A DNA stretch of 64,000 bases from Escherichia phage SUSP2 (KT454806), one strand, 5' to 3'. Positions 28,079 through 59,425 are shown, counted from the first letter of the stretch. The notes: generated from the sequence alone by a model not told the origin. Translations and numbers: made by a program.

Positions 28079-28960
28079 ATGAAAACTATTATTACCGTAC
28101 TGTTGCACTCACAGAAGAAAGGTGCTCACCAAGAAGAGTTCAACATTATCCAGTTCCCGTCTGGAGAAATCGGTGGAAACTTCTCCGAAGAACTAGTGAC
28201 CTATGCTGAAAAGAATGCTTCCCAGATTGAGAACGTCATCTTCACTGTACAGGGTTACAACAAAGATACTCTGTTTGCTTTAGCTCTGGCAAAAGAAGCT
28301 ATTGATAAACTAATTCCTCAGAAAGCAACGATGAAGACTGTCATTTTTGCTTATCTGCCAAATGCTCGTTATGACCGTCACATGTTTAAAGGTGATGCAG
28401 CAGCACTGAAGGTGTTTGCAAATCTTGTCAATGCAATGGATTTTGATGCAGTATGTGCTCTGGATGCTCATAGTGATGTTGCAGATAACTTGTTCAAATG
28501 CTTTCAGAACATCCCTCAAAAAGAGGTTGCAGCACACTATGCAAGTGAGCCAACTATTGATTTCTTGGTAGCACCAGACGCAGGAGCAGCTAAGAAGATT
28601 GCAGAGACGGCTAAAGAGGTTGATAAACCTTACGTAACAATGGCTAAGGTTCGAGACCTGAAGACTGGTGAGATTACAGGTATGCGTCTGCTTGACGATG
28701 TAGACCTGACTGGTAAAACTGTTCTCATTATTGATGATATCTGTGATGGTGGTCGTACATTCATTGAAGCAGCCAAGTATCTTCGTGAAGCTGGAGCAGC
28801 TAAAGTTGAACTGTATGTAACACACGGTATTTTCTCAAAAGGTGTTGAAAACCTGCTTGACAATGGGATTTCACACATCTACACTACAGACTCTTTAGGC
28901 AGTTCGAAAGACCGTGGTCTTACTCATTTCGGTCAAGTAACTGTAGCAAACATTTACTAA
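28079..28960 (+). CDS. prs: ribose-phosphate pyrophosphokinase (PRPP synthetase)
   Basis: 293 aa; TVLIIDDICDGGRTFIEAAKYLREAGA is the type I PRTase PRPP-binding loop, close to E. coli Prs. Confidence 0.8.
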   Translation: MKTIITVLLHSQKKGAHQEEFNIIQFPSGEIGGNFSEELVTYAEKNASQIENVIFTVQGYNKDTLFALALAKEAIDKLIPQKATMKTVIFAYLPNARYDRHMFKGDAAALKVFANLVNAMDFDAVCALDAHSDVADNLFKCFQNIPQKEVAAHYASEPTIDFLVAPDAGAAKKIAETAKEVDKPYVTMAKVRDLKTGEITGMRLLDDVDLTGKTVLIIDDICDGGRTFIEAAKYLREAGAAKVELYVTHGIFSKGVENLLDNGISHIYTTDSLGSSKDRGLTHFGQVTVANIY

Positions 28961-28985: not shown

Positions 28986-29006
28986 ACTTTGAGAGAGATT
29001 AAAAAC

Positions 29007-30833
29007 ATGTCTAAATCAATCTATGCAGTTCCAGCAGGTCTTAATGCAGATGCTTACAAAGCTGGTCACATCTACCAGTATCCAAGTGCAACTCAGTATC
29101 TGATGCTGAACCTTACACCTCGTGGTGATAAGTGGTTCAACACTCCTTTGGAGACTGATGGTGTAGTTGCTTTTGGTATCCAACGTTTTGTGAAAGATTA
29201 TCTGGTAGACCACTGGAATGCAACGTTCTTTGAACGTGATAAGAAAGAAGCCGTTGATGAAATCTTAGAAATCATGAATGGTGTACTTGGTGCAGATGCC
29301 ATTGGTCGCCAACATTGGGAAGAACTTCACGACTTAGGTTATCTGCCAGTGGCAGTATACTCTGTTGAAGAAGGTACAATTGTCCCTATGCGTGTTCCAA
29401 TGATTATCTTCAAAAATACCGTTGAAGGTTTCCATTGGGTAGCTGGTTATCTGGAAGATGCTTTCTCTGCTGAAATCTGGAAAGCTTGTACCATTGCAAC
29501 TATTGCATTACATTACAAACGTATCTGTAAAGGTTGGGCTGACAAGACTTGTGACAATGACTTCCATCTGCCTTGGCAGTGTCACGACTTTGCAATGCGT
29601 GGTATGTCTGGTTTCACAGACGATGCCTTCAATGCTGTAGGCCATCTTACCAGCTTCAAAGGTACTGATAGCTTCCCTGCTGTGTATACTGCTAAACGTG
29701 CATATGGACAGTTCATGACTGTAAGTGATATTGGTAACTCTGTTCCAGCAACTGAACACTCTGTGATGTGTGCAAACATTGCATGGAATATGAAAGACCT
29801 GTCAGAAGATGATATTCACTCACAGTATATTATGCAGTCTGATAGCTTACTGGATGCTAAACGTTGGCGTGGTGAGGTTAAAACCTTTGAACATCTTTTG
29901 GTAGATGTTTATCCAACTGGTATTGCAAGTGTTGTTTCTGATACTTACAACTTCTGGCGCACAGTTACAGAGGTTCTCCCAGAACTTCGTGAAGTAATCC
30001 TGAAACGAGATGGAAAACTGGTAATCCGTCCAGACTCTGGTGACCCTGTACACATTGTTACTGGCTATCGTGCAATTGAGTGGGAAAATGCTAAAAGTAT
30101 GTATTACAAACATATGTCAACCATTTCCCCTAACAACACTTATCTGCTTGATGCAATCTTGAATTGTAGCATGTCAGATATGGGTTATGGTTTCTCTGCT
30201 TGGTTAATCTCTGAAGGTTATGAGTTAGTTGTTGATGCAGAAGACTTTAACGTTGCTGATACAGTTAATCTGAAAGAAACTTACAAGACTGGTAAAGTTG
30301 TTGTTAAACGTATGCTGACAGCAGAAATTGATGGTGCTATCAAGACTCTATACAATATCTTTGGTGGAACTGTAAACGCTAAAGGCTACAAAGTTCTTGA
30401 TGAGCACATTGGCTTAATCTACGGTGATTCTATCACTCTGGAACGTGCTGAAGAGATTCTTAGTCGTCTTGCTGAAAAGGGCTTTGCAAGTTCTAACGTT
30501 GTTTTTGGTGTTGGTTCATACACTTACCAGTACCTGACTCGTGATACCTTTGCATTCGCTGTCAAAGCAACTCTTGCACAGATAGATGGGGAAGAAATCA
30601 TGCTGGCAAAAGACCCTAAAACTGATAGTGGTCTGAAGAAGTCTGCTTTTGGCGGTGTAGTCCCTATGTGGGATGGTGATAAGCTGGAAGCTGTAGATGG
30701 TTTTGGTTTTGCAGAATTTGAAAGCGTACTAGATAACCCTCAGTGTGCTCTGAAGTTGGTATTCTGTGACTCTCAGCCATATGGCTACGTTAATCTTCGT
30801 GATGTACGAAATGTTATTGACAGACAGCTTTAA
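29007..30833 (+). CDS. nadV: nicotinamide phosphoribosyltransferase (NAMPT)
   Basis: C-terminal GDSITLERAEEIL..VVFGVGSYTYQYLTRDTFAFAVKAT..AKDPKTDSGLKKSAFGG resembles the human NAMPT GDGVD..AFGSGGGLLQKLTRD..FKDPVAD block. Confidence 0.85.
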   Translation: MSKSIYAVPAGLNADAYKAGHIYQYPSATQYLMLNLTPRGDKWFNTPLETDGVVAFGIQRFVKDYLVDHWNATFFERDKKEAVDEILEIMNGVLGADAIGRQHWEELHDLGYLPVAVYSVEEGTIVPMRVPMIIFKNTVEGFHWVAGYLEDAFSAEIWKACTIATIALHYKRICKGWADKTCDNDFHLPWQCHDFAMRGMSGFTDDAFNAVGHLTSFKGTDSFPAVYTAKRAYGQFMTVSDIGNSVPATEHSVMCANIAWNMKDLSEDDIHSQYIMQSDSLLDAKRWRGEVKTFEHLLVDVYPTGIASVVSDTYNFWRTVTEVLPELREVILKRDGKLVIRPDSGDPVHIVTGYRAIEWENAKSMYYKHMSTISPNNTYLLDAILNCSMSDMGYGFSAWLISEGYELVVDAEDFNVADTVNLKETYKTGKVVVKRMLTAEIDGAIKTLYNIFGGTVNAKGYKVLDEHIGLIYGDSITLERAEEILSRLAEKGFASSNVVFGVGSYTYQYLTRDTFAFAVKATLAQIDGEEIMLAKDPKTDSGLKKSAFGGVVPMWDGDKLEAVDGFGFAEFESVLDNPQCALKLVFCDSQPYGYVNLRDVRNVIDRQL

Positions 30834-36799: not shown

Positions 36800-36811
36800 G
36801 GTTATGATACA

Positions 36812-36832
36812 GGCTCCTTCGGGAGCCTTTTT
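36812..36832 (+). terminator. rho-independent terminator
   Basis: GGCTCC-ttcg-GGAGCC plus TTTTT. Confidence 0.7.
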
Positions 36833-37021: not shown

Positions 37022-37369
37022 ATGACATTTAAAGAGTTCTGTCAAGCCGCTTTCATAGTTGTTTTTCTGATTGGTGTAGGTGTTTGGGGCGGTTATTCTT
37101 ATAAGGATTACCAAGTCACTCAGACAGAATTGACTAATCAGAAGCTTATAAGCGTTGCTAAGGATGCTTACCAAGAAGGTTTAGCAAATCTTAGCTCCAA
37201 TTATAAAAATGATTTGAAAGATGTGCTTGCTAAAAACAAACACACAAAAGAGGTATTGACATATGAGAAGACTAAGCCAGAGTTTTATAACATTTGTGCT
37301 ACTGATACTTATGTCAGGGTGTTCAATGAACAAAGTGAACTCTACGTTCAAAAACTCCCAAGTAAGTGA
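37022..37369 (+). CDS. membrane protein, i-spanin-like candidate
   Basis: 115 aa; N-terminal TM helix AAFIVVFLIGVGVWGGY then helical region. Confidence 0.4.
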   Translation: MTFKEFCQAAFIVVFLIGVGVWGGYSYKDYQVTQTELTNQKLISVAKDAYQEGLANLSSNYKNDLKDVLAKNKHTKEVLTYEKTKPEFYNICATDTYVRVFNEQSELYVQKLPSK

Positions 37370-37532
37370 AAGTGATAAGTACACTCAAGAAGAATCACGC
37401 TATGTTGTCAAGGGCAATACAGGCACAGACCTGTCACAAGCCCTTGAATTTTATCGTGATGGGTACTATCAATGTACGATGAAAGCCAATAATTTAATTG
37501 ATATGATTTTGTTAGGGAATAAGCAGCAATGA
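37263..37532 (+). CDS. lipoprotein, o-spanin-like candidate (overlaps 37022-37369 out of frame)
   Basis: Lipobox LILMSGCS; AAAGAGG RBS; 107 nt overlap with upstream TM protein gene. Confidence 0.45.
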   Translation: MRRLSQSFITFVLLILMSGCSMNKVNSTFKNSQVSESDKYTQEESRYVVKGNTGTDLSQALEFYRDGYYQCTMKANNLIDMILLGNKQQ

Positions 37533-37976: not shown

Positions 37977-38283
37977 CTTCGTAGCTGTCATCCAAGATAG
38001 TGAAAAAGATATTGGCGTAGCACAAGTCACATATGGTAATGGTGAGTTCCTTTATGGTATTGTGGCAATGGTTGGTACAAGAGGCGACACACCAACCTTT
38101 CATGATTGTGTAGATAAACTCGAAGAGTCTGTCAGGAATCATTGGTGTCTTATCTGGATGAATGAGAAAGATATCAAAGAGCGTTATACTAAACTTGGTA
38201 TTGACATTGCTGGCATAGAGCATGTAGACTTGTACGAGTTGACAGAGAAAGTTCTCTTTGAAAAAGGTAAAGAAAATGGCTGA
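37957..38283 (+). CDS. hypothetical protein
   Basis: 108 aa. Confidence 0.45.
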   Translation: MELNGKTFVAVIQDSEKDIGVAQVTYGNGEFLYGIVAMVGTRGDTPTFHDCVDKLEESVRNHWCLIWMNEKDIKERYTKLGIDIAGIEHVDLYELTEKVLFEKGKENG

Positions 38284-38476
38284 TTTCTGCAAAGACTGTT
38301 CCATCGAACTGTTTGGACGTGACACAGGGGACTTAAAAGGTCTTATCTCTGAAGAAGAGTTCAAAGCTGGTTACGCTATGCCAACACTCTGTGAAGGTTG
38401 TGGTGGAATCTGGGTAGACCATGAAGGACAGCGTGTGAAGCCTTCTAAAGATAAAGAATCATGGGAGAAATGGTAA
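38276..38476 (+). CDS. small zinc-ribbon protein
   Basis: CKDC..CEGCGG. Confidence 0.4.
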   Translation: MADFCKDCSIELFGRDTGDLKGLISEEEFKAGYAMPTLCEGCGGIWVDHEGQRVKPSKDKESWEKW

Positions 38477-38477
38477 G

Positions 38478-39260
38478 ATGGGTATTGTAAAAGTCATCAA
38501 AGGGGATATCTTCACAGACTTTGAAAAAGGTAAGTTTGATATCATCGGTCACGGTTGCAACTGTATGAATCTGATGGGTGCAGGTATCGCTGACAAGATT
38601 TCTAAGGGTTATCCAAAAGCCTATGAAACTGATGCTGAAGTCTACCGTGTAGCAGGAGGAAGAGAGCATAAACCTTGTCAGAAACTGCTTGGTAAACTCT
38701 CTGTAGCACGTCTTAAACAAGGTCGTATTGCTAACCTGTACACTCAGTTGAAGACTGGTAAAGATGCTCGCTACGATGCTCTTGAGAGTGCTCTGTTGAG
38801 CCTTAACCAGTACTGCAAAGTAAATCAATTGAAGAAAGTTGGTCTTCCAATGATTGGTGCAGGGATTGGTGGACTTGACCCGAAAGCTATTGTGGTGATT
38901 ATGAATCACATCTTGAAAGATGTTGATGTTTATCTTTACGTGTTTGAAGAGGCAATGTTTAATACTCTGTCAACATGGGGTAATCACAGTGAACCACAAT
39001 ACTTTGCAGGTGTAGCCGTTGTCAACGAAGACGGAGTTACCCTCTTCAGGCATCGTAAGAACAAGGTACATCGGAGTAACCCTCCGGTTGAGCGAATGTC
39101 TCTAAGTAACGCTCAAGTTACCCCGCCGTTGAAAGGAAGTATGCAACGTGCAGTGACATTTGGAAGTGAGCCTGATGTGTACATTCTTGCAGCAAATGAG
39201 AAAGATGCTGAAGCAATTGTAGACATTTCTAATATCAAGTTCTTAGCTGCAAAGAACTAA
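38478..39260 (+). CDS. macro domain protein (ADP-ribose binding/processing) with C-terminal extension
   Basis: VKVIKGDIFTDFEKGKFDIIGHGCNCMNLMGAGIADKI and GLPMIGAGIGGLDP match macro-domain glycine-rich loops. Confidence 0.7.
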   Translation: MGIVKVIKGDIFTDFEKGKFDIIGHGCNCMNLMGAGIADKISKGYPKAYETDAEVYRVAGGREHKPCQKLLGKLSVARLKQGRIANLYTQLKTGKDARYDALESALLSLNQYCKVNQLKKVGLPMIGAGIGGLDPKAIVVIMNHILKDVDVYLYVFEEAMFNTLSTWGNHSEPQYFAGVAVVNEDGVTLFRHRKNKVHRSNPPVERMSLSNAQVTPPLKGSMQRAVTFGSEPDVYILAANEKDAEAIVDISNIKFLAAKN

Positions 39261-39332
39261 GAAACTCTGTAGCATATTCACAATAGACTAAGCCTTTCTT
39301 ATCTGGTAAATTTTTCAGGTAAGGAGGGCTTT

Positions 39333-39515
39333 TTCATTTTAAAATTGTGCAGGTAAAAGTCTGGACAGAAATCTGTAGAGAAAATTTTGAACTCCAAAGG
39401 GAAAATTCATTTTCAATTTGTGCAGGTGGACTCCAAAGAGCTTTTTCATTTTCAAAACGTGCAGTCCCGGCGAGTGTCGGGCAAGAAAAATCATTTTAGA
39501 ATTGTGCAGGTAGAT
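39333..39515. repeat. array of at least four direct repeats (cattttNNaaNNtgtgcaggt), iteron-like
   Basis: Copies at about 39333, 39405, 39444, 39491, with a degenerate copy near 39597. Confidence 0.55.
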
Positions 39516-39528
39516 AGATAGTACCAGC

Positions 39529-39565
39529 CCTGCCCCTCTCCCCCTCTTACTCCCCCTCTCCCCAA
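39529..39565. repeat. homopyrimidine C/T tract
   Basis: ccctgcccctctccccctcttactccccctctcccc; unusual in AT-rich context. Confidence 0.6.
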
Positions 39566-53570: not shown

Positions 53571-54455
53571 TTAACCTCCTACTTCGTTAACCACAACAGT
53601 AGCTGCATTAGAAGTCACAGAACCACCTGCACCAGTAACTACACAAGTGTATGTTCCGGCATCATCAGCAGTTGTTGCATCCTCTTTTGTGTAAGTCGCT
53701 GAAGTTGCTCCAGAGATGTTATCAGCACCTTTCTTCCACTGGTAACCAGTTGCTCCAGTAGCCACGATGCTCAACTCAAGAGTGTCACCTTCAGTGATTT
53801 CAACGTTTTGCGGCTGCGTAGTGATTACTGGCAAAGCATTCACTGTCACAGTTGCAGCATTTGACGTTACAGTTGCACCACCTTCACCAGTTACTACGCA
53901 GGTGTAAGAACCAGCATCAGCAGGTACTACATTTGATTTGGTGTAAGTTGCAGATGTTGCACCGGAGATGTTACTTGCGCCTTTCTTCCACTGATAACCC
54001 GTAGCACCAGTTGCAACAATACTCAGAGTCAGCGTTCCACCTTCGTTAACAGTCTGGTTAGTAGGCTGCGTAGTGATTACTGGAGGAACTACAGAGTCTT
54101 TCAGTTTTGCGTTCAGCATTGAGAAAGGTTTGACCCTTGCAAGCCATTCACAGTAAACGGTGTCAACGTCTTTACCGTTGATAATTGCATACTGCAAATC
54201 CATGAAGAAATCAGCAGTTCTCATCTGAGCACCAACGCTGTAAAGGAGTTCTGGACTGAATGGGACTGTATAGGCTGGCTCATAAGCAAAGTTGGTCACC
54301 TCTGCAATATCTGCTTCAGGCCAAGGTGAACTGTAAGTCAGTGGTAGAATAGCTTCTTGATATGTTCTGAAGTCATATCTTTTACCAGCTTTAACGTTCG
54401 CAATAAAACCTTTAACGAACTCTTTGAAATCTGGATATGTTTTTGCCTTAATCAT
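53571..54455 (-). CDS. protein with two tandem Ig-like repeats (possible virion-surface or decoration protein)
   Basis: Repeated blocks PVITTQP..TLxLSIVATGATGYQWKKGAxNISGATSATYTK..AGxYTCVVTG; N-terminal domain paralogous to 54448-54822. Confidence 0.55.
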   Translation of the reverse strand: MIKAKTYPDFKEFVKGFIANVKAGKRYDFRTYQEAILPLTYSSPWPEADIAEVTNFAYEPAYTVPFSPELLYSVGAQMRTADFFMDLQYAIINGKDVDTVYCEWLARVKPFSMLNAKLKDSVVPPVITTQPTNQTVNEGGTLTLSIVATGATGYQWKKGASNISGATSATYTKSNVVPADAGSYTCVVTGEGGATVTSNAATVTVNALPVITTQPQNVEITEGDTLELSIVATGATGYQWKKGADNISGATSATYTKEDATTADDAGTYTCVVTGAGGSVTSNAATVVVNEVGG

Positions 54456-56528: not shown

Positions 56529-57944
56529 ATGAGCGATTTATTTAAACATTCGCACCTTCATGCAGGGCGAACTGAAAATGGTGCTGTTAACCATACATCA
56601 TCAATGTCTGCCTTGGTAGACTTCTACAAAGCTGCTGGTTCAAGCCGTGGTAATGTAGAGATTCTCCCAGAGTTGTTCTACAAAGCTTTGCGTGAGGATG
56701 TTGATGTAGCAGTTCGTATTTTACTGCATATGCGAGATGTACGAGAAGGTATGGGTGAGCGTAAAGCTTTCCGAACTGTTCTCTTACAAGCAATCGAAGA
56801 TAACATTCTAGATTCTTTCCAAGTTCTTCGTATCATGGATAAGATTTCTGAATTAGGTCGTTTCGATGACTTCAAAATCTTCGTAGGGACTCGTTATGAG
56901 ACAGATGCTTTCAAGCATTTAGAAGCAGCTTTGTTAGACCCTGATACAGCAGGTTTAGCAGCTAAGTGGTTACCACGAGTAAAACCACGACACAAACAGT
57001 TTGTAAAACGTTTCTGTAAGTTTGCAAACCTGAGTGAGAAAGAATACCGTACACTGTTATCAGCTTTGTCTGATACCGTTGAACAGAAAATCTCTACAAA
57101 TAACTTTGGTGAGATTGACTACAGCAAGATTCCTTCACTGGCTGCTGCACGTTATCAAAAACTGTTCAGCAAAAAAGATGGTGAACGTTATGCAGCTTAC
57201 GTTGAAGCTTTATCCAAGGGTGAAGCAAAGATTAATGCTGGTGCTGTGTACCCATACGATATTCTGAAGTCCGTTAATCACGGTAAAGCAAACGTTGCAA
57301 ACGAACAGTGGAAAGTATTACCAAACTGGATGGCAGAAGGTGAAAACATTCTGTGCATGACAGACGTATCAGCTTCTATGACGTGGCAAACTTTTGGTGC
57401 TGTTACCGCTCTTGATATTGGTCTGTCTTTGGCGTTATACGTCTCAGAACGCAATACAGGGTGCTTTAAAGATGAGTTGATGGTTTACTCCACAAGACCT
57501 CACTTTATTACTCTGAGTGGTGATTTGCAGACTCGTATGCGTCAGGTAATGAACAAGGTTGAGTATGGTTCAACAAACCTGCAAGCAGCATTTGACCGCA
57601 TTCTTGAAATCGGTGTAAGAAATGGCTTGACTCAGGCAGCAATGCCAAGTAAGCTTATTATCTTCTCTGATATGGAGTTCAATCAGGTTGACGGTGCAGA
57701 TGGTTGTACAAACTTCGAAGCAATTCGTAGTAAGTACGAAAAAGCTGGATACGAAATGCCACAACTGGTATTCTGGTACTTAGCAAACCGTAATGGTACT
57801 TGCGAAGTGTCTGTTAAGGATAACGGTGTAGCAATGGTATCGGGGTTCTCTCCAGCCACTTTAAAAGCTCTGCTTGGTGGTGAGAAGTTTGACCCAATCA
57901 GCGTAATGCTCAAAGCAGTAATGATTGACCGTTACATCTGGTAA
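56529..57944 (+). CDS. vWA-domain protein, possibly Ro60-like (TROVE plus vWA architecture)
   Basis: 471 aa; MIDAS-like DVSAS in CMTDVSASMTW at about residue 277; TROVE assignment of the N-terminal 260 aa is tentative. Confidence 0.5.
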   Translation: MSDLFKHSHLHAGRTENGAVNHTSSMSALVDFYKAAGSSRGNVEILPELFYKALREDVDVAVRILLHMRDVREGMGERKAFRTVLLQAIEDNILDSFQVLRIMDKISELGRFDDFKIFVGTRYETDAFKHLEAALLDPDTAGLAAKWLPRVKPRHKQFVKRFCKFANLSEKEYRTLLSALSDTVEQKISTNNFGEIDYSKIPSLAAARYQKLFSKKDGERYAAYVEALSKGEAKINAGAVYPYDILKSVNHGKANVANEQWKVLPNWMAEGENILCMTDVSASMTWQTFGAVTALDIGLSLALYVSERNTGCFKDELMVYSTRPHFITLSGDLQTRMRQVMNKVEYGSTNLQAAFDRILEIGVRNGLTQAAMPSKLIIFSDMEFNQVDGADGCTNFEAIRSKYEKAGYEMPQLVFWYLANRNGTCEVSVKDNGVAMVSGFSPATLKALLGGEKFDPISVMLKAVMIDRYIW

Positions 57945-58110: not shown

Positions 58111-58187
58111 CTCCGTTTAGCTCAGTTTGGTAGAGTGCGCCGTTTGGGGCGGTGAGGTCGAAGGTTCAATCCCTTCAACGGAGACCA
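58111..58187 (+). tRNA. tRNA-Pro (anticodon UGG)
   Basis: Hand-folded cloverleaf: acceptor ctccgtt/aacggag, anticodon loop tttgggg, T-arm gaagg-ttcaatc-ccttc, encoded CCA. Confidence 0.75.
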
Positions 58188-58194
58188 AATTAAT

Positions 58195-58272
58195 GTTCCA
58201 GTAGACAAATTGGTAAAGTCACCACACTTTCAATGTGGAGTTTTGAGGGTTCAAGTCCCTTCTGGAACGCCA
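58195..58272 (+). tRNA. tRNA-Glu (UUC)
   Basis: Acceptor gttccag/ctggaac, anticodon loop ctttcaa, CCA. Confidence 0.75.
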
Positions 58273-58355
58273 AATTTGACAGAAGACCAAGTACAGCAAA
58301 TAACTTTACTTTTCGCGCATAGAAAACTTAAAAGTTTGGTCTGGTCATAAAAGTT

Positions 58356-58432
58356 CGCGGGTATAGAGAAAGGGCGTCTCACATGTCTCATTAGCATGGT
58401 ATCGGCAGGTTCGACTCCTGCACCCGCCTCCA
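58356..58432 (+). tRNA. tRNA-like gene, anticodon CAU (Met/Ile2/fMet undetermined)
   Basis: T-arm gcagg-ttcgact-cctgc, anticodon loop ctcatta; 1-72 mismatch and unusual discriminator. Confidence 0.4.
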
Positions 58433-58514
58433 AATTTGCAGAAGACCGTTTACAGCAATCTCAAAAATTTTTATCGGAAAAAATGAAAAGATACGGTCTG
58501 GCAATACTAAACAT

Positions 58515-58591
58515 GGTGAGGAAGCACATAAGGCATGTGCGGTCGGCTGTTAACCGAATGGTATAGGGTTCGAATCCCTAACTCACCGCCA
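58515..58591 (+). tRNA. tRNA-Asn (GUU)
   Basis: Anticodon loop ctgttaa, T-arm taggg-ttcgaat-cccta, CCA. Confidence 0.7.
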
Positions 58592-58651
58592 AGATTTGGG
58601 AGAGAAGCGTAATGCTCACCGATTTGTAAGGTGCAAGTCCTTAGCCTGAAT

Positions 58652-58739
58652 AGAATAAAATGCGTCGTTATCCCGTAGATGGAAGCGGTGGTGACTGTAA
58701 ATCACTTGTCATTATGACTCGGTAGGTTCGACTCCTTCA
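58652..58739 (+). tRNA. tRNA-Tyr (GUA), long variable arm
   Basis: Acceptor gcgtcgt/acggcgc, anticodon loop ctgtaaa, 88 nt. Confidence 0.65.
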
Positions 58740-58745
58740 CGGCGC

Positions 58746-58823
58746 ACCAAATAAAGGTTATGTAGTTTAATCTGGTTAAAATACTCCCCTGTCACGGGAG
58801 ATGATGAGGGTTCGAATCCCTTC
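58746..58823 (+). tRNA. tRNA-Asp (GUC)
   Basis: Anticodon loop ctgtcac, stem ctccc/gggag, CCA. Confidence 0.75.
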
Positions 58824-59261
58824 GTAACCGCCAAATTTGAGAGGGCTTTTTAGCCCCTCCCTTAAAGAGTTCTTACGAGTATTCTTTAAAGGAGCAGAAG
58901 ACCAAATTCAGCAAGCCAACTTAAAAAATTTCAAGCCAATTTAATTTTGAAAAATTTAAAACTTGGTCTGGCTCAACAAATTTACAGAAGACCGTTTACA
59001 GCAAGTATAAAACAATCTATTTCTCTGGTAAAGAAAAGGCGAAGGTTCGATTCCTTCACACGTTACGGCGTGTTGGTGTAATGGTAGCACTTAAGATAAA
59101 ACAACGGTCTGGTAATCTTCTTTGCAGTGACTTATGGAGCTAAATGCCGTCCCATGAGTGCCGATGAATTTCCTTAGCATGATTCTAGATTAGCTTAATA
59201 GGAAATGACTCTACAAACCCTTTAGCAAGGTTTGCGTAGGTTACTGCAAAGATGATTTAAT

Positions 59262-59337
59262 GGGAGTGTAGCAGAATGGTGATGCGGCAGACTTTTAATC
59301 TGACAGGCGACGGGTTCGAATCCCTCCACTCCTACCA
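59262..59337 (+). tRNA. tRNA-Lys (UUU)
   Basis: Acceptor gggagtg/cactcct, anticodon loop cttttaa; weak T-stem. Confidence 0.6.
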
Positions 59338-59343
59338 AATAAT

Positions 59344-59420
59344 GGTTCAGTCGCAGATAAGGTAATGCAAGGGTTTCATAAGCCCTATGAATGTGGGTTC
59401 GAATCCCATCTGAACCTCCA
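59344..59420 (+). tRNA. tRNA-Met-type (CAU)
   Basis: Acceptor ggttcag/ctgaacc, anticodon loop ttcataa. Confidence 0.65.
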
Positions 59421-59425
59421 ATTAT

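Follow-up and report, generated by a model that had tools for sequence, protein, structure and literature searches.

A Tk.4-like macrodomain protein of FelixO1-like phages, extended by an apparently lineage-restricted C-terminal domain, is a candidate anti-DarTG2 enzyme

Results

A conserved Ounavirinae gene in an orphan context

Positions 38478-39260 on the plus strand of the window (the whole 64,000-nucleotide stretch of Escherichia phage SUSP2, KT454806, analysed here) hold a complete coding sequence with an ATG start, 260 amino acids plus stop, which is a conserved gene of the Ounavirinae. An earlier note on this DNA had placed an open reading frame (ORF) of this length here, and we found it exactly as described, along with every motif quoted for it: GDIFT (residues 9-13), GHGCNCMNLMGAGIADKI (residues 24-41) and GLPMIGAGIGGLDP (residues 122-135). 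The product matches PHROG 335 (“phosphatase”) over its full length (E = 2e-99), and tblastn finds matches to it in 2763 phage records, 263 of which cover at least 80% of the protein. Because of these matches, and of the Pfam Macro match described below, this is a real gene and not a chance ORF. The 4-kb stretch around it is 90-96% identical to coliphages and Salmonella phages of the Ounavirinae (FelixO1-like, Suspvirus/Felixounavirus), such as PC79-13, EcSzw-2 and mistaenkt. Since orthologues in these relatives are labelled “putative phosphatase”, “O-acetyl-ADP-ribose deacetylase” or “macro domain protein”/“macro domain-containing protein”, the macro-domain gene is already known at the level of annotation, and the new part is its tail.

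The gene sits in a block of small genes downstream of rIIA/rIIB and is the last of a plus-strand unit that begins after a terminator-like site at 36811-36828. Thirty nucleotides past its stop codon lies an intrinsic-terminator-like hairpin of 17 pairs followed by a T-run (39290-39331, plus strand), where a Rho-independent terminator is annotated in phage wV8. A scan of the neighbourhood (36.3-40.6 kb) showed no ADP-ribosyltransferase (ART), toxin or darT gene; the neighbours are small, uncharacterised phage ORFs without an ART domain (phrogs 2210, 4453, 26590, 4391 and 5293). Because no ADP-ribosyltransferase or toxin gene lies nearby, we describe the encoded enzyme as an orphan, like AdfN and AdfM.

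Several other features of this region were recorded. The same unit contains overlapping i-spanin- and o-spanin-like ORFs (37022-37532, plus strand), as annotated in C600M2 and mistaenkt, so that lysis genes stand among its small uncharacterised genes. Directly upstream of the macro gene, with its stop 1 nt before the macro ATG, is a 66-aa ORF (38276-38476, plus strand; phrog_2210) with two CxxC pairs in a zinc-ribbon-like arrangement, which may be a translationally coupled partner of the macro protein. This 201-nt ORF occurs at every Felixounavirus, Mooglevirus and Suspvirus locus fetched, and its C600M2 copy, the one that was aligned, is 83% identical. We did not retain it as a conserved partner gene, as it is not recognisable in distant relatives, one of which (L004) has a different small CxxC...CxxC ORF upstream of its macro gene. 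Just past the macro gene's terminator, a gene-poor stretch of about 700 bp contains four copies of a repeat of about 38 nt (core TCATTTT-N6-GTGCAG; 39334-39509, plus strand; spacings of 73, 39 and 45 nt), of which the 64-kb window holds no copy elsewhere (0.14 expected by chance). The repeats may serve as binding sites or form a promoter cluster. They are followed by a C-rich tract with three copies of a CTCCCCCTCTCCCC-like sequence (39530-39563). A structured RNA in this stretch was considered and set aside, there being no Rfam match.

The earlier note remarked that the phage encodes NAD+ salvage, which is correct: a PRPP-synthetase-like protein of 293 aa with Pribosyltran and Pribosyl_synth domains (28079-28960, plus strand) is followed by a NAMPT/NadV-like protein of 614 aa (28989-30833, plus strand). 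Gene adjacency lends nothing to the link with the macro gene that the remark implied, and we rejected functional coupling on this ground: about 8 kb, containing further genes and terminator-like sites, separates the two genes from the macro gene downstream, and they are not part of its transcription unit. Elsewhere in the window we noted 25 tRNA genes (58111-63578, plus strand) that serve most amino acids, including two for tRNA-Met and three for tRNA-Leu, an array typical of FelixO1-like phages; a 293-aa protein with tandem immunoglobulin-like domains (53571-54455, minus strand; Ig_3/I-set, E = 2e-20); and a 471-aa protein that matches DUF2828 and DUF7788 (56529-57944, plus strand).

The N-terminal part is a macro domain closest to the ALC1-like class

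Residues 1-157 (38478-38948, plus strand) form a macro domain of the ALC1-like, TARG1-DarG-Poa1p type according to Pfam, PDB profile, AlphaFold2 (AF2) and Foldseek comparisons. Pfam Macro (PF01661) matches residues 25-139 over profile positions 2-115 of 118 with 31.4 bits (E = 2e-7), above the curated gathering score of 22 bits. An AF2 model of the full protein, built on 18 two-domain homologues, has a mean pLDDT of 90.3 and a pTM of 0.88; in it, the macro domain (residues 1-157) is joined by a linker helix (158-167) to a beta-rich C-terminal domain that ends in a helix. Foldseek returned 246 matches to the PDB at E ≤ 1e-3; the best is TARG1 (E = 2e-10, TMt 0.85), followed by Poa1p (TMt 0.77) and then the DarG macrodomains of Mycobacterium tuberculosis and Thermus aquaticus, and the best 50 of the 246 consist of macrodomains and of designed enzymes similar to the macro protein TTHA0132. 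The macro-domain call of the earlier note is thus borne out by sequence profile, by predicted fold and by the structure comparison that it had proposed.

A family profile run against PDB sequences ranks TARG1 first (5e-11), then M. tuberculosis DarG (1.7e-9), T. aquaticus DarG (1.3e-6) and Poa1p (1e-4), with MacroD/YmdB-type proteins (0.006-0.05), SCO6735 (0.04) and BT1257 (0.1) lower down. By this profile ranking, the domain falls closest to the ALC1-like class (TARG1/DarG/Poa1p/SCO6735). DarG is also the only match in PADLOC (E = 2e-12, profile positions 15-146 of 329) and in NCBIfam (NF048014; E = 2e-11, positions 3-149 of 338), in both cases over the macro half of the profile, and against these DarG profiles the protein scores better than T6 Tk.4. 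It is nevertheless not a DarG family member, because score, catalytic lysine, C-terminal domain and darT neighbour all fail: the NF048014 score is 44 bits against an equivalog cut-off of 250, and the C-terminal 100 aa match nothing. The protein probably works like the macro half of DarG.

The ADP-ribose pocket is conserved, with glutamine at the catalytic-lysine position

Alignments place the conserved ADP-ribose pocket in N28, the G34-A-G36 loop and the P124-x-IGAGIGGLD134 loop. The first loop, GHGCNCMNLMGAGIADKI, is encoded at 38547-38600 (plus strand), with the N28 codon at 38559-38561. In the joint alignment, N28 is aligned with N22 of TaqDarG and N23 of PhiKZ AdfM and is nearly invariant (≥90%); it is invariant in the 18 two-domain homologues, which reach down to 33% identity, as is the G34-A-G36 loop. 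The DarG asparagine contacts ADP-ribose, and mutation of DarG N22 or PhiKZ AdfM N23 cripples activity (PMC5179494, PMC13309987). The second loop, GLPMIGAGIGGLDP (38841-38882, plus strand), is the glycine-rich, diphosphate-binding loop. Its G127-AGIGG-L-D134 stretch resembles GNGGLD of M. tuberculosis DarG (GNGGLP in the T. aquaticus enzyme) and GCGLD125 of TARG1, with D134 aligned to TARG1 D125, and is invariant in the 18 homologues except for G131, which is Ala in some.

Q90 (codon CAG, 38745-38747, plus strand), in an invariant N-L-Y-T-Q motif, occupies the position of the catalytic lysine, that is K84 of TARG1, K80 of TaqDarG and K78 of PhiKZ AdfM. It is present in 18 of 18 two-domain homologues, and every aligned phage Tk.4-like sequence, T4 and T6 included, has Gln here. 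The preceding residue, T89, is aligned with DarG T79 and is nearly invariant (≥90%) in both alignments. T93 stands where DarG has W83, the proposed thymine stacker, and is not conserved; the local sequences read F-P-T-K-K-H-W in DarG and L-Y-T-Q-L-K-T in the phage protein. DarG K80A is inactive (PMC5179494). In SCO6735, the residue at the TARG1/DarG catalytic-lysine position is Gln85; Q85A and Q85E are inactive, a water-mediated mechanism has been proposed, and the enzyme was reported as the most efficient of three compared in hydrolysing ADP-ribosylated thymidine (T-ADPr) DNA (PMC9411070). Gln is therefore a known alternative solution in the ALC1-like class, and the Tk.4/Ounavirinae clade appears to share the SCO6735-type Gln, the equivalence of Q90, K80 and SCO6735 Q85 being transitive, through alignments to DarG and TARG1 plus the published structural alignment. 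In a codon analysis over 12 orthologues, the macro domain has a median dN/dS near 0.016 in unsaturated within-Felixounavirus pairs, indicating very strong purifying selection.

A further motif, H25-x-C-N-C (H25-G-C-N-C), is common to yeast Poa1p (H23-S-C-N-C) and T4 Tk.4, and the “phosphatase” label probably derives from it. By sequence, Poa1p aligns over residues 5-57 alone (E ~1e-3); of its active-site residues, H23 is aligned with H25, but S30 with L32 of the phage protein. Among metagenomic relatives we observed a 339-aa protein (P0025) in which an NLYTQ macro domain, 35% identical to the phage protein, is fused to cREC_REC (PF20274, E = 5e-7); some members of the clade may thus be tied to the processing of ADP-ribose cyclic phosphate or 1''-phosphate.

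T4 Tk.4 is the closest characterised relative

The protein is 41% identical to T4 Tk.4 over 135 aa (E = 8e-24), its closest characterised relative, with which it has HGCNC, NLYTQ and P-x-IGAGIG in common. In T-even phages the tblastn match adjoins the vs gene, and in T4 it is tk.4, annotated “phosphatase; contains A1pp motif”. The T6 orthologue behaves like the T4 protein in the comparison. T4 Tk.4 and the protein described here both belong to the territory of phrog_335. A 2025 preprint describes a transposon screen in which tk.4, alone among T4 genes, came out as significant and needed on E. coli that expresses DarTG2; T4 became sensitive to DarTG2 when the gene was cleanly knocked out, and the product, which resembles the DarG macrodomain, received the name AdfM (bioRxiv 10.1101/2025.11.20.689424). 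These are genetic data from a preprint, on a protein that is only 41% identical and lacks the C-terminal domain. The chimallivirus macrodomain PhiKZ gp104, independently named AdfM, strips DNA of thymidine-linked ADP-ribose in vitro, the catalytic-mutant control being N23A (PMC13309987). Our literature search found no paper linking Felixounavirus with DarTG2.

The C-terminal domain is predicted to fold and evolves rapidly

Beyond the linker helix (residues 158-167; 38949-38978, plus strand, from the secondary structure of the AF2 model), residues 168-260 (38979-39257, plus strand) make up an orphan domain in which some six beta strands are followed by a helix at the C-terminus. When residues 158-260 were modelled by themselves from 13 sequences, roughly six strands and a terminal helix were obtained with a pLDDT of 84.5. 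The earlier note's observation of no recognisable motif in this part holds: Pfam searches with 13 family members gave no significant C-terminal match (seven families were matched by one member each, best E = 0.025), and the PADLOC and NCBIfam matches are confined to the macro half. A degenerate Nudix or other known domain, considered since the GVAVVNEDG strand looked Nudix-like, was dropped for want of a significant Pfam match (PH appeared once, at 0.095).

We then asked how widely the domain occurs. Searched with a profile HMM of the domain, 1.84 billion representative proteins yielded ten matches, of which seven are the macro-fusion family or its fragments and three are spurious multi-stretch alignments in repeat proteins, a TPR-type protein and a retroelement concatemer among them; a search of BFVD found the domain's own family only. 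Occurrence outside the fusion family was accordingly rejected. With the domain alone as query, tblastn matched 241 of 50,697 phage records, which by name nearly all infect enterobacterial hosts; every record opened was from Ounavirinae. Distant two-domain homologues (33-45% identity) on metagenomic contigs keep the gene order rIIA-rIIB, SLT, PNKP-like gene, macro, and the Kolesnikvirus orthologue, whose tail is beyond the reach of tblastn, is also 260 aa long. Since distant homologues keep both domains and synteny and the Kolesnikvirus protein has this length, sequence comparison indicates that the two-domain architecture is ancestral to the Ounavirinae-like lineage and that the C-terminal domain does not exist alone. 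The models and searches together describe a domain that is predicted to be folded and that is restricted to the FelixO1-like (Ounavirinae-like) lineage.

The median dN/dS of the C-terminal domain in the same pairs is about 0.21, whereas that of the macro domain is about 0.016, and amino-acid identity between genera is 45-57% as opposed to 75-81%. The tail is a real protein domain under selection, and its rate of evolution exceeds that of the macro domain by roughly an order of magnitude. The net charge of the tail in the homologues lies anywhere between -5 and +5 and follows no trend, and this inconsistent sign argues against both a DarG-style acidic mimic of single-stranded DNA and a simple basic DNA binder.

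Discussion

The interpretation that we favour, to which we assign a probability of about one half, is that the gene encodes an AdfM/Tk.4-type enzyme whose Gln-type, ALC1-like macrodomain reverses DarT2 thymidine ADP-ribosylation of phage DNA, and to which a lineage-specific accessory domain has been added. An orphan, antitoxin-like ADP-ribosyl hydrolase of this type would bind, through its macro domain, the ADP-ribose that host DarT2 puts on thymidines of single-stranded phage DNA, and would hydrolyse the ribose-base bond so that replication and transcription are restored. Catalysis would be Gln-type and water-mediated, as for SCO6735, and not of the Lys type of DarG and TARG1. The C-terminal domain of about 93 aa would be an accessory module packed onto the macro domain, most likely for the recognition of substrate or partner, whether by holding DNA, by docking to a phage or host protein, or by binding the toxin. 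Of this picture, the analysis shows the macro fold and its class, the homology to T4 Tk.4, the conserved pocket residues, the orphan setting of the gene and a C-terminal domain that is folded in the models and under selection; the T-ADPr DNA substrate, the anti-DarTG2 role, the catalytic mechanism and any role of the C-terminal domain are inferred. The earlier suggestion that the protein may remove ADP-ribosylation fits this interpretation, and we sharpen it to an AdfM/Tk.4-type, DarG-like enzyme that probably acts on DarT2-modified DNA.

Several lines of evidence lead us to this interpretation: the homology to Tk.4, with the tk.4 phenotype on DarTG2 hosts; the standing of DarG as sole PADLOC and NCBIfam match, with TARG1, Poa1p and DarG as top solved structures, members of the ALC1-like class for which thymidine-ADPr reversal has been proposed as a unifying activity (PMC9411070); the correspondence of N28 to N22/N23 and of Q90 to the SCO6735 Gln85 position; and an orphan context that fits the AdfN/AdfM pattern, coupled with a macro dN/dS of about 0.016. 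Weighing against it, the catalytic K80 and the thymine-stacking W83 of DarG are both absent (Q90, T93), the HxCNC motif also occurs in Poa1p, which is an ADP-ribose-1''-phosphate phosphatase, and the cREC fusion of P0025 hints that some clade members act on soluble ADP-ribose derivatives. TARG1 and SCO6735, moreover, act on proteins too (PMC9411070), so that the substrate cannot be read from sequence.

The protein-directed activity of TARG1 and SCO6735, which hydrolyse protein-linked ADP-ribose besides T-ADPr DNA (PMC9411070), raises the alternative of a de-ADP-ribosylase for another macromolecule, either a protein or RNA modified by another host ART defence or toxin, or one whose ADP-ribosylation is tuned during infection, with the C-terminal domain selecting the target. 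D134 corresponds to D125 of the protein-directed Lys/Asp dyad of TARG1, and a fast-evolving accessory domain fits the recognition of a variable macromolecular partner. The lysine of that dyad is missing, however (Q90), the scanned neighbourhood shows no ART gene, and the closest characterised homologue, T4 Tk.4, scored against DarTG2 only. Reversal of mRNA ADP-ribosylation, which we had considered as a specific case, was rejected on the weak negative evidence that T4, with its Tk.4, is still strongly restricted by CmdTAC, an mRNA ADP-ribosyltransferase system. We regard the alternative as a whole as unlikely.

Somewhat less likely again is a Poa1p-like hydrolase of soluble ADP-ribose derivatives, which would clean up or destroy small molecules such as ADP-ribose-1''-phosphate, O-acetyl-ADP-ribose or NAD-derived signals, among them the cyclic ADPR isomers of Thoeris. 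A possible preference of viral macro domains for soluble ADPr derivatives has been argued by Iyer et al. (PMC9503650), and such an activity would agree with the alignment of H-x-C-N-C to Poa1p, H23 included, with the place of Poa1p among the top fold matches and with the cREC cyclic-phosphate-processing domain of the 35%-identical metagenomic relative. Against these observations, the sequence alignment with Poa1p covers just the N-terminal 55 aa or so, and the phenotype of the T4 homologue is specific to DarTG2. The labels “phosphatase” and “OAADPr deacetylase” carried by relatives point in the same direction, although the “phosphatase” labels are inherited annotations and not tests, and so does the presence of NAMPT and a PRPP-synthetase-like enzyme, although their genes lie some 8 kb off in other transcription units.

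That the protein is a non-catalytic ADP-ribose binder, sequestering or shielding ADPr-modified DNA, protein or ADPr-derived signals with the C-terminal domain as effector or oligomerisation module, is improbable: Q90 does replace the nucleophilic lysine of TARG1 and DarG, and mutants of DarG, TARG1 and SCO6735 that have lost catalysis can still interact with DarT and so inhibit it in vitro (PMC9411070), but in SCO6735 a Gln at this position is essential and goes together with high activity (PMC9411070), Q90, N28, D134 and both glycine loops (G131 aside) are invariant among the two-domain homologues, and the macro dN/dS is the pattern of a preserved active site.

Returning to the anti-DarTG2 interpretation, a more speculative extension, which we consider rather doubtful, would make the C-terminal domain a second, independently evolved anti-defence module that blocks DarT2 or another host ART directly, or retargets the macro domain to a new substrate. 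If it blocks DarT2, the two-pronged mechanism of DarG (enzymatic reversal plus toxin occlusion) would be reproduced by an unrelated fold, and the fast evolution of the domain would track host toxin variants. If it retargets the enzyme, the substrate would be one not yet known as ADP-ribosylated in phage defence.

DarTG systems are present in E. coli (EPEC) and other pathogens, where they block phage replication by DNA ADP-ribosylation, and FelixO1-like phages are widely used as typing and therapy candidates. Should the gene prove to be an anti-DarTG2 factor, it would predict the host range of FelixO1-like phages on DarTG2-carrying strains, and the recently recognised AdfM class would gain a third phage lineage. 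The occurrence of Gln, in place of the DarG/TARG1 Lys, throughout the Tk.4-like phage clade lends weight to the view that thymidine-ADPr hydrolysis has a second catalytic solution. The Ounavirinae fusion is also a tractable case in which to ask how an accessory domain adjusts the specificity of a macrodomain or adds the ability to bind a toxin.

Comparison with known systems

With the DarG2 macrodomain (PDB 5M31, 5M3E, 5M3I) and PhiKZ gp104, the protein shares the macro subclass, the fold, the N22/N23-equivalent Asn and the GGLD loop. It differs from DarG and PhiKZ AdfM in overall sequence (20-23% identity; ~20% for PhiKZ), in the replacement of K80/K78 by Gln and in that of W83 by Thr; the DarT-binding C-terminal domain of DarG is absent, an unrelated domain stands in its place, and there is no adjacent darT. 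In having Gln at the catalytic position it resembles SCO6735 (PDB 5E3B), a stand-alone, efficient thymidine-ADPr DNA hydrolase and DarT antidote, from which it is nonetheless remote by profile (E = 0.043). SCO6735 is a bacterial protein, from Streptomyces coelicolor, and has an extended mobile loop and no extra domain. Human TARG1/OARD1 is the best profile and fold match and has the D134 equivalent (D125), but K84 where the phage protein has Q90; TARG1 and Poa1p, moreover, are eukaryotic single-domain proteins that act on protein Glu/Asp-ADPr, OAADPr or ADPr-1''P.

The closest counterpart is T4 Tk.4, likewise a stand-alone phage gene without a toxin partner, with Gln at the catalytic-lysine position and in a clade labelled “phosphatase”. 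The two differ in phage family and genomic neighbourhood, and in the second glycine loop, where Tk.4 has GIGKGNWD and the protein described here GIGGLDP, so that the Asp equivalent to TARG1 D125 is present in the latter and absent from Tk.4. Tk.4 is a macro-only protein of 155 aa, to which the FelixO1-like protein adds about 103 aa, the linker helix plus the orphan domain.
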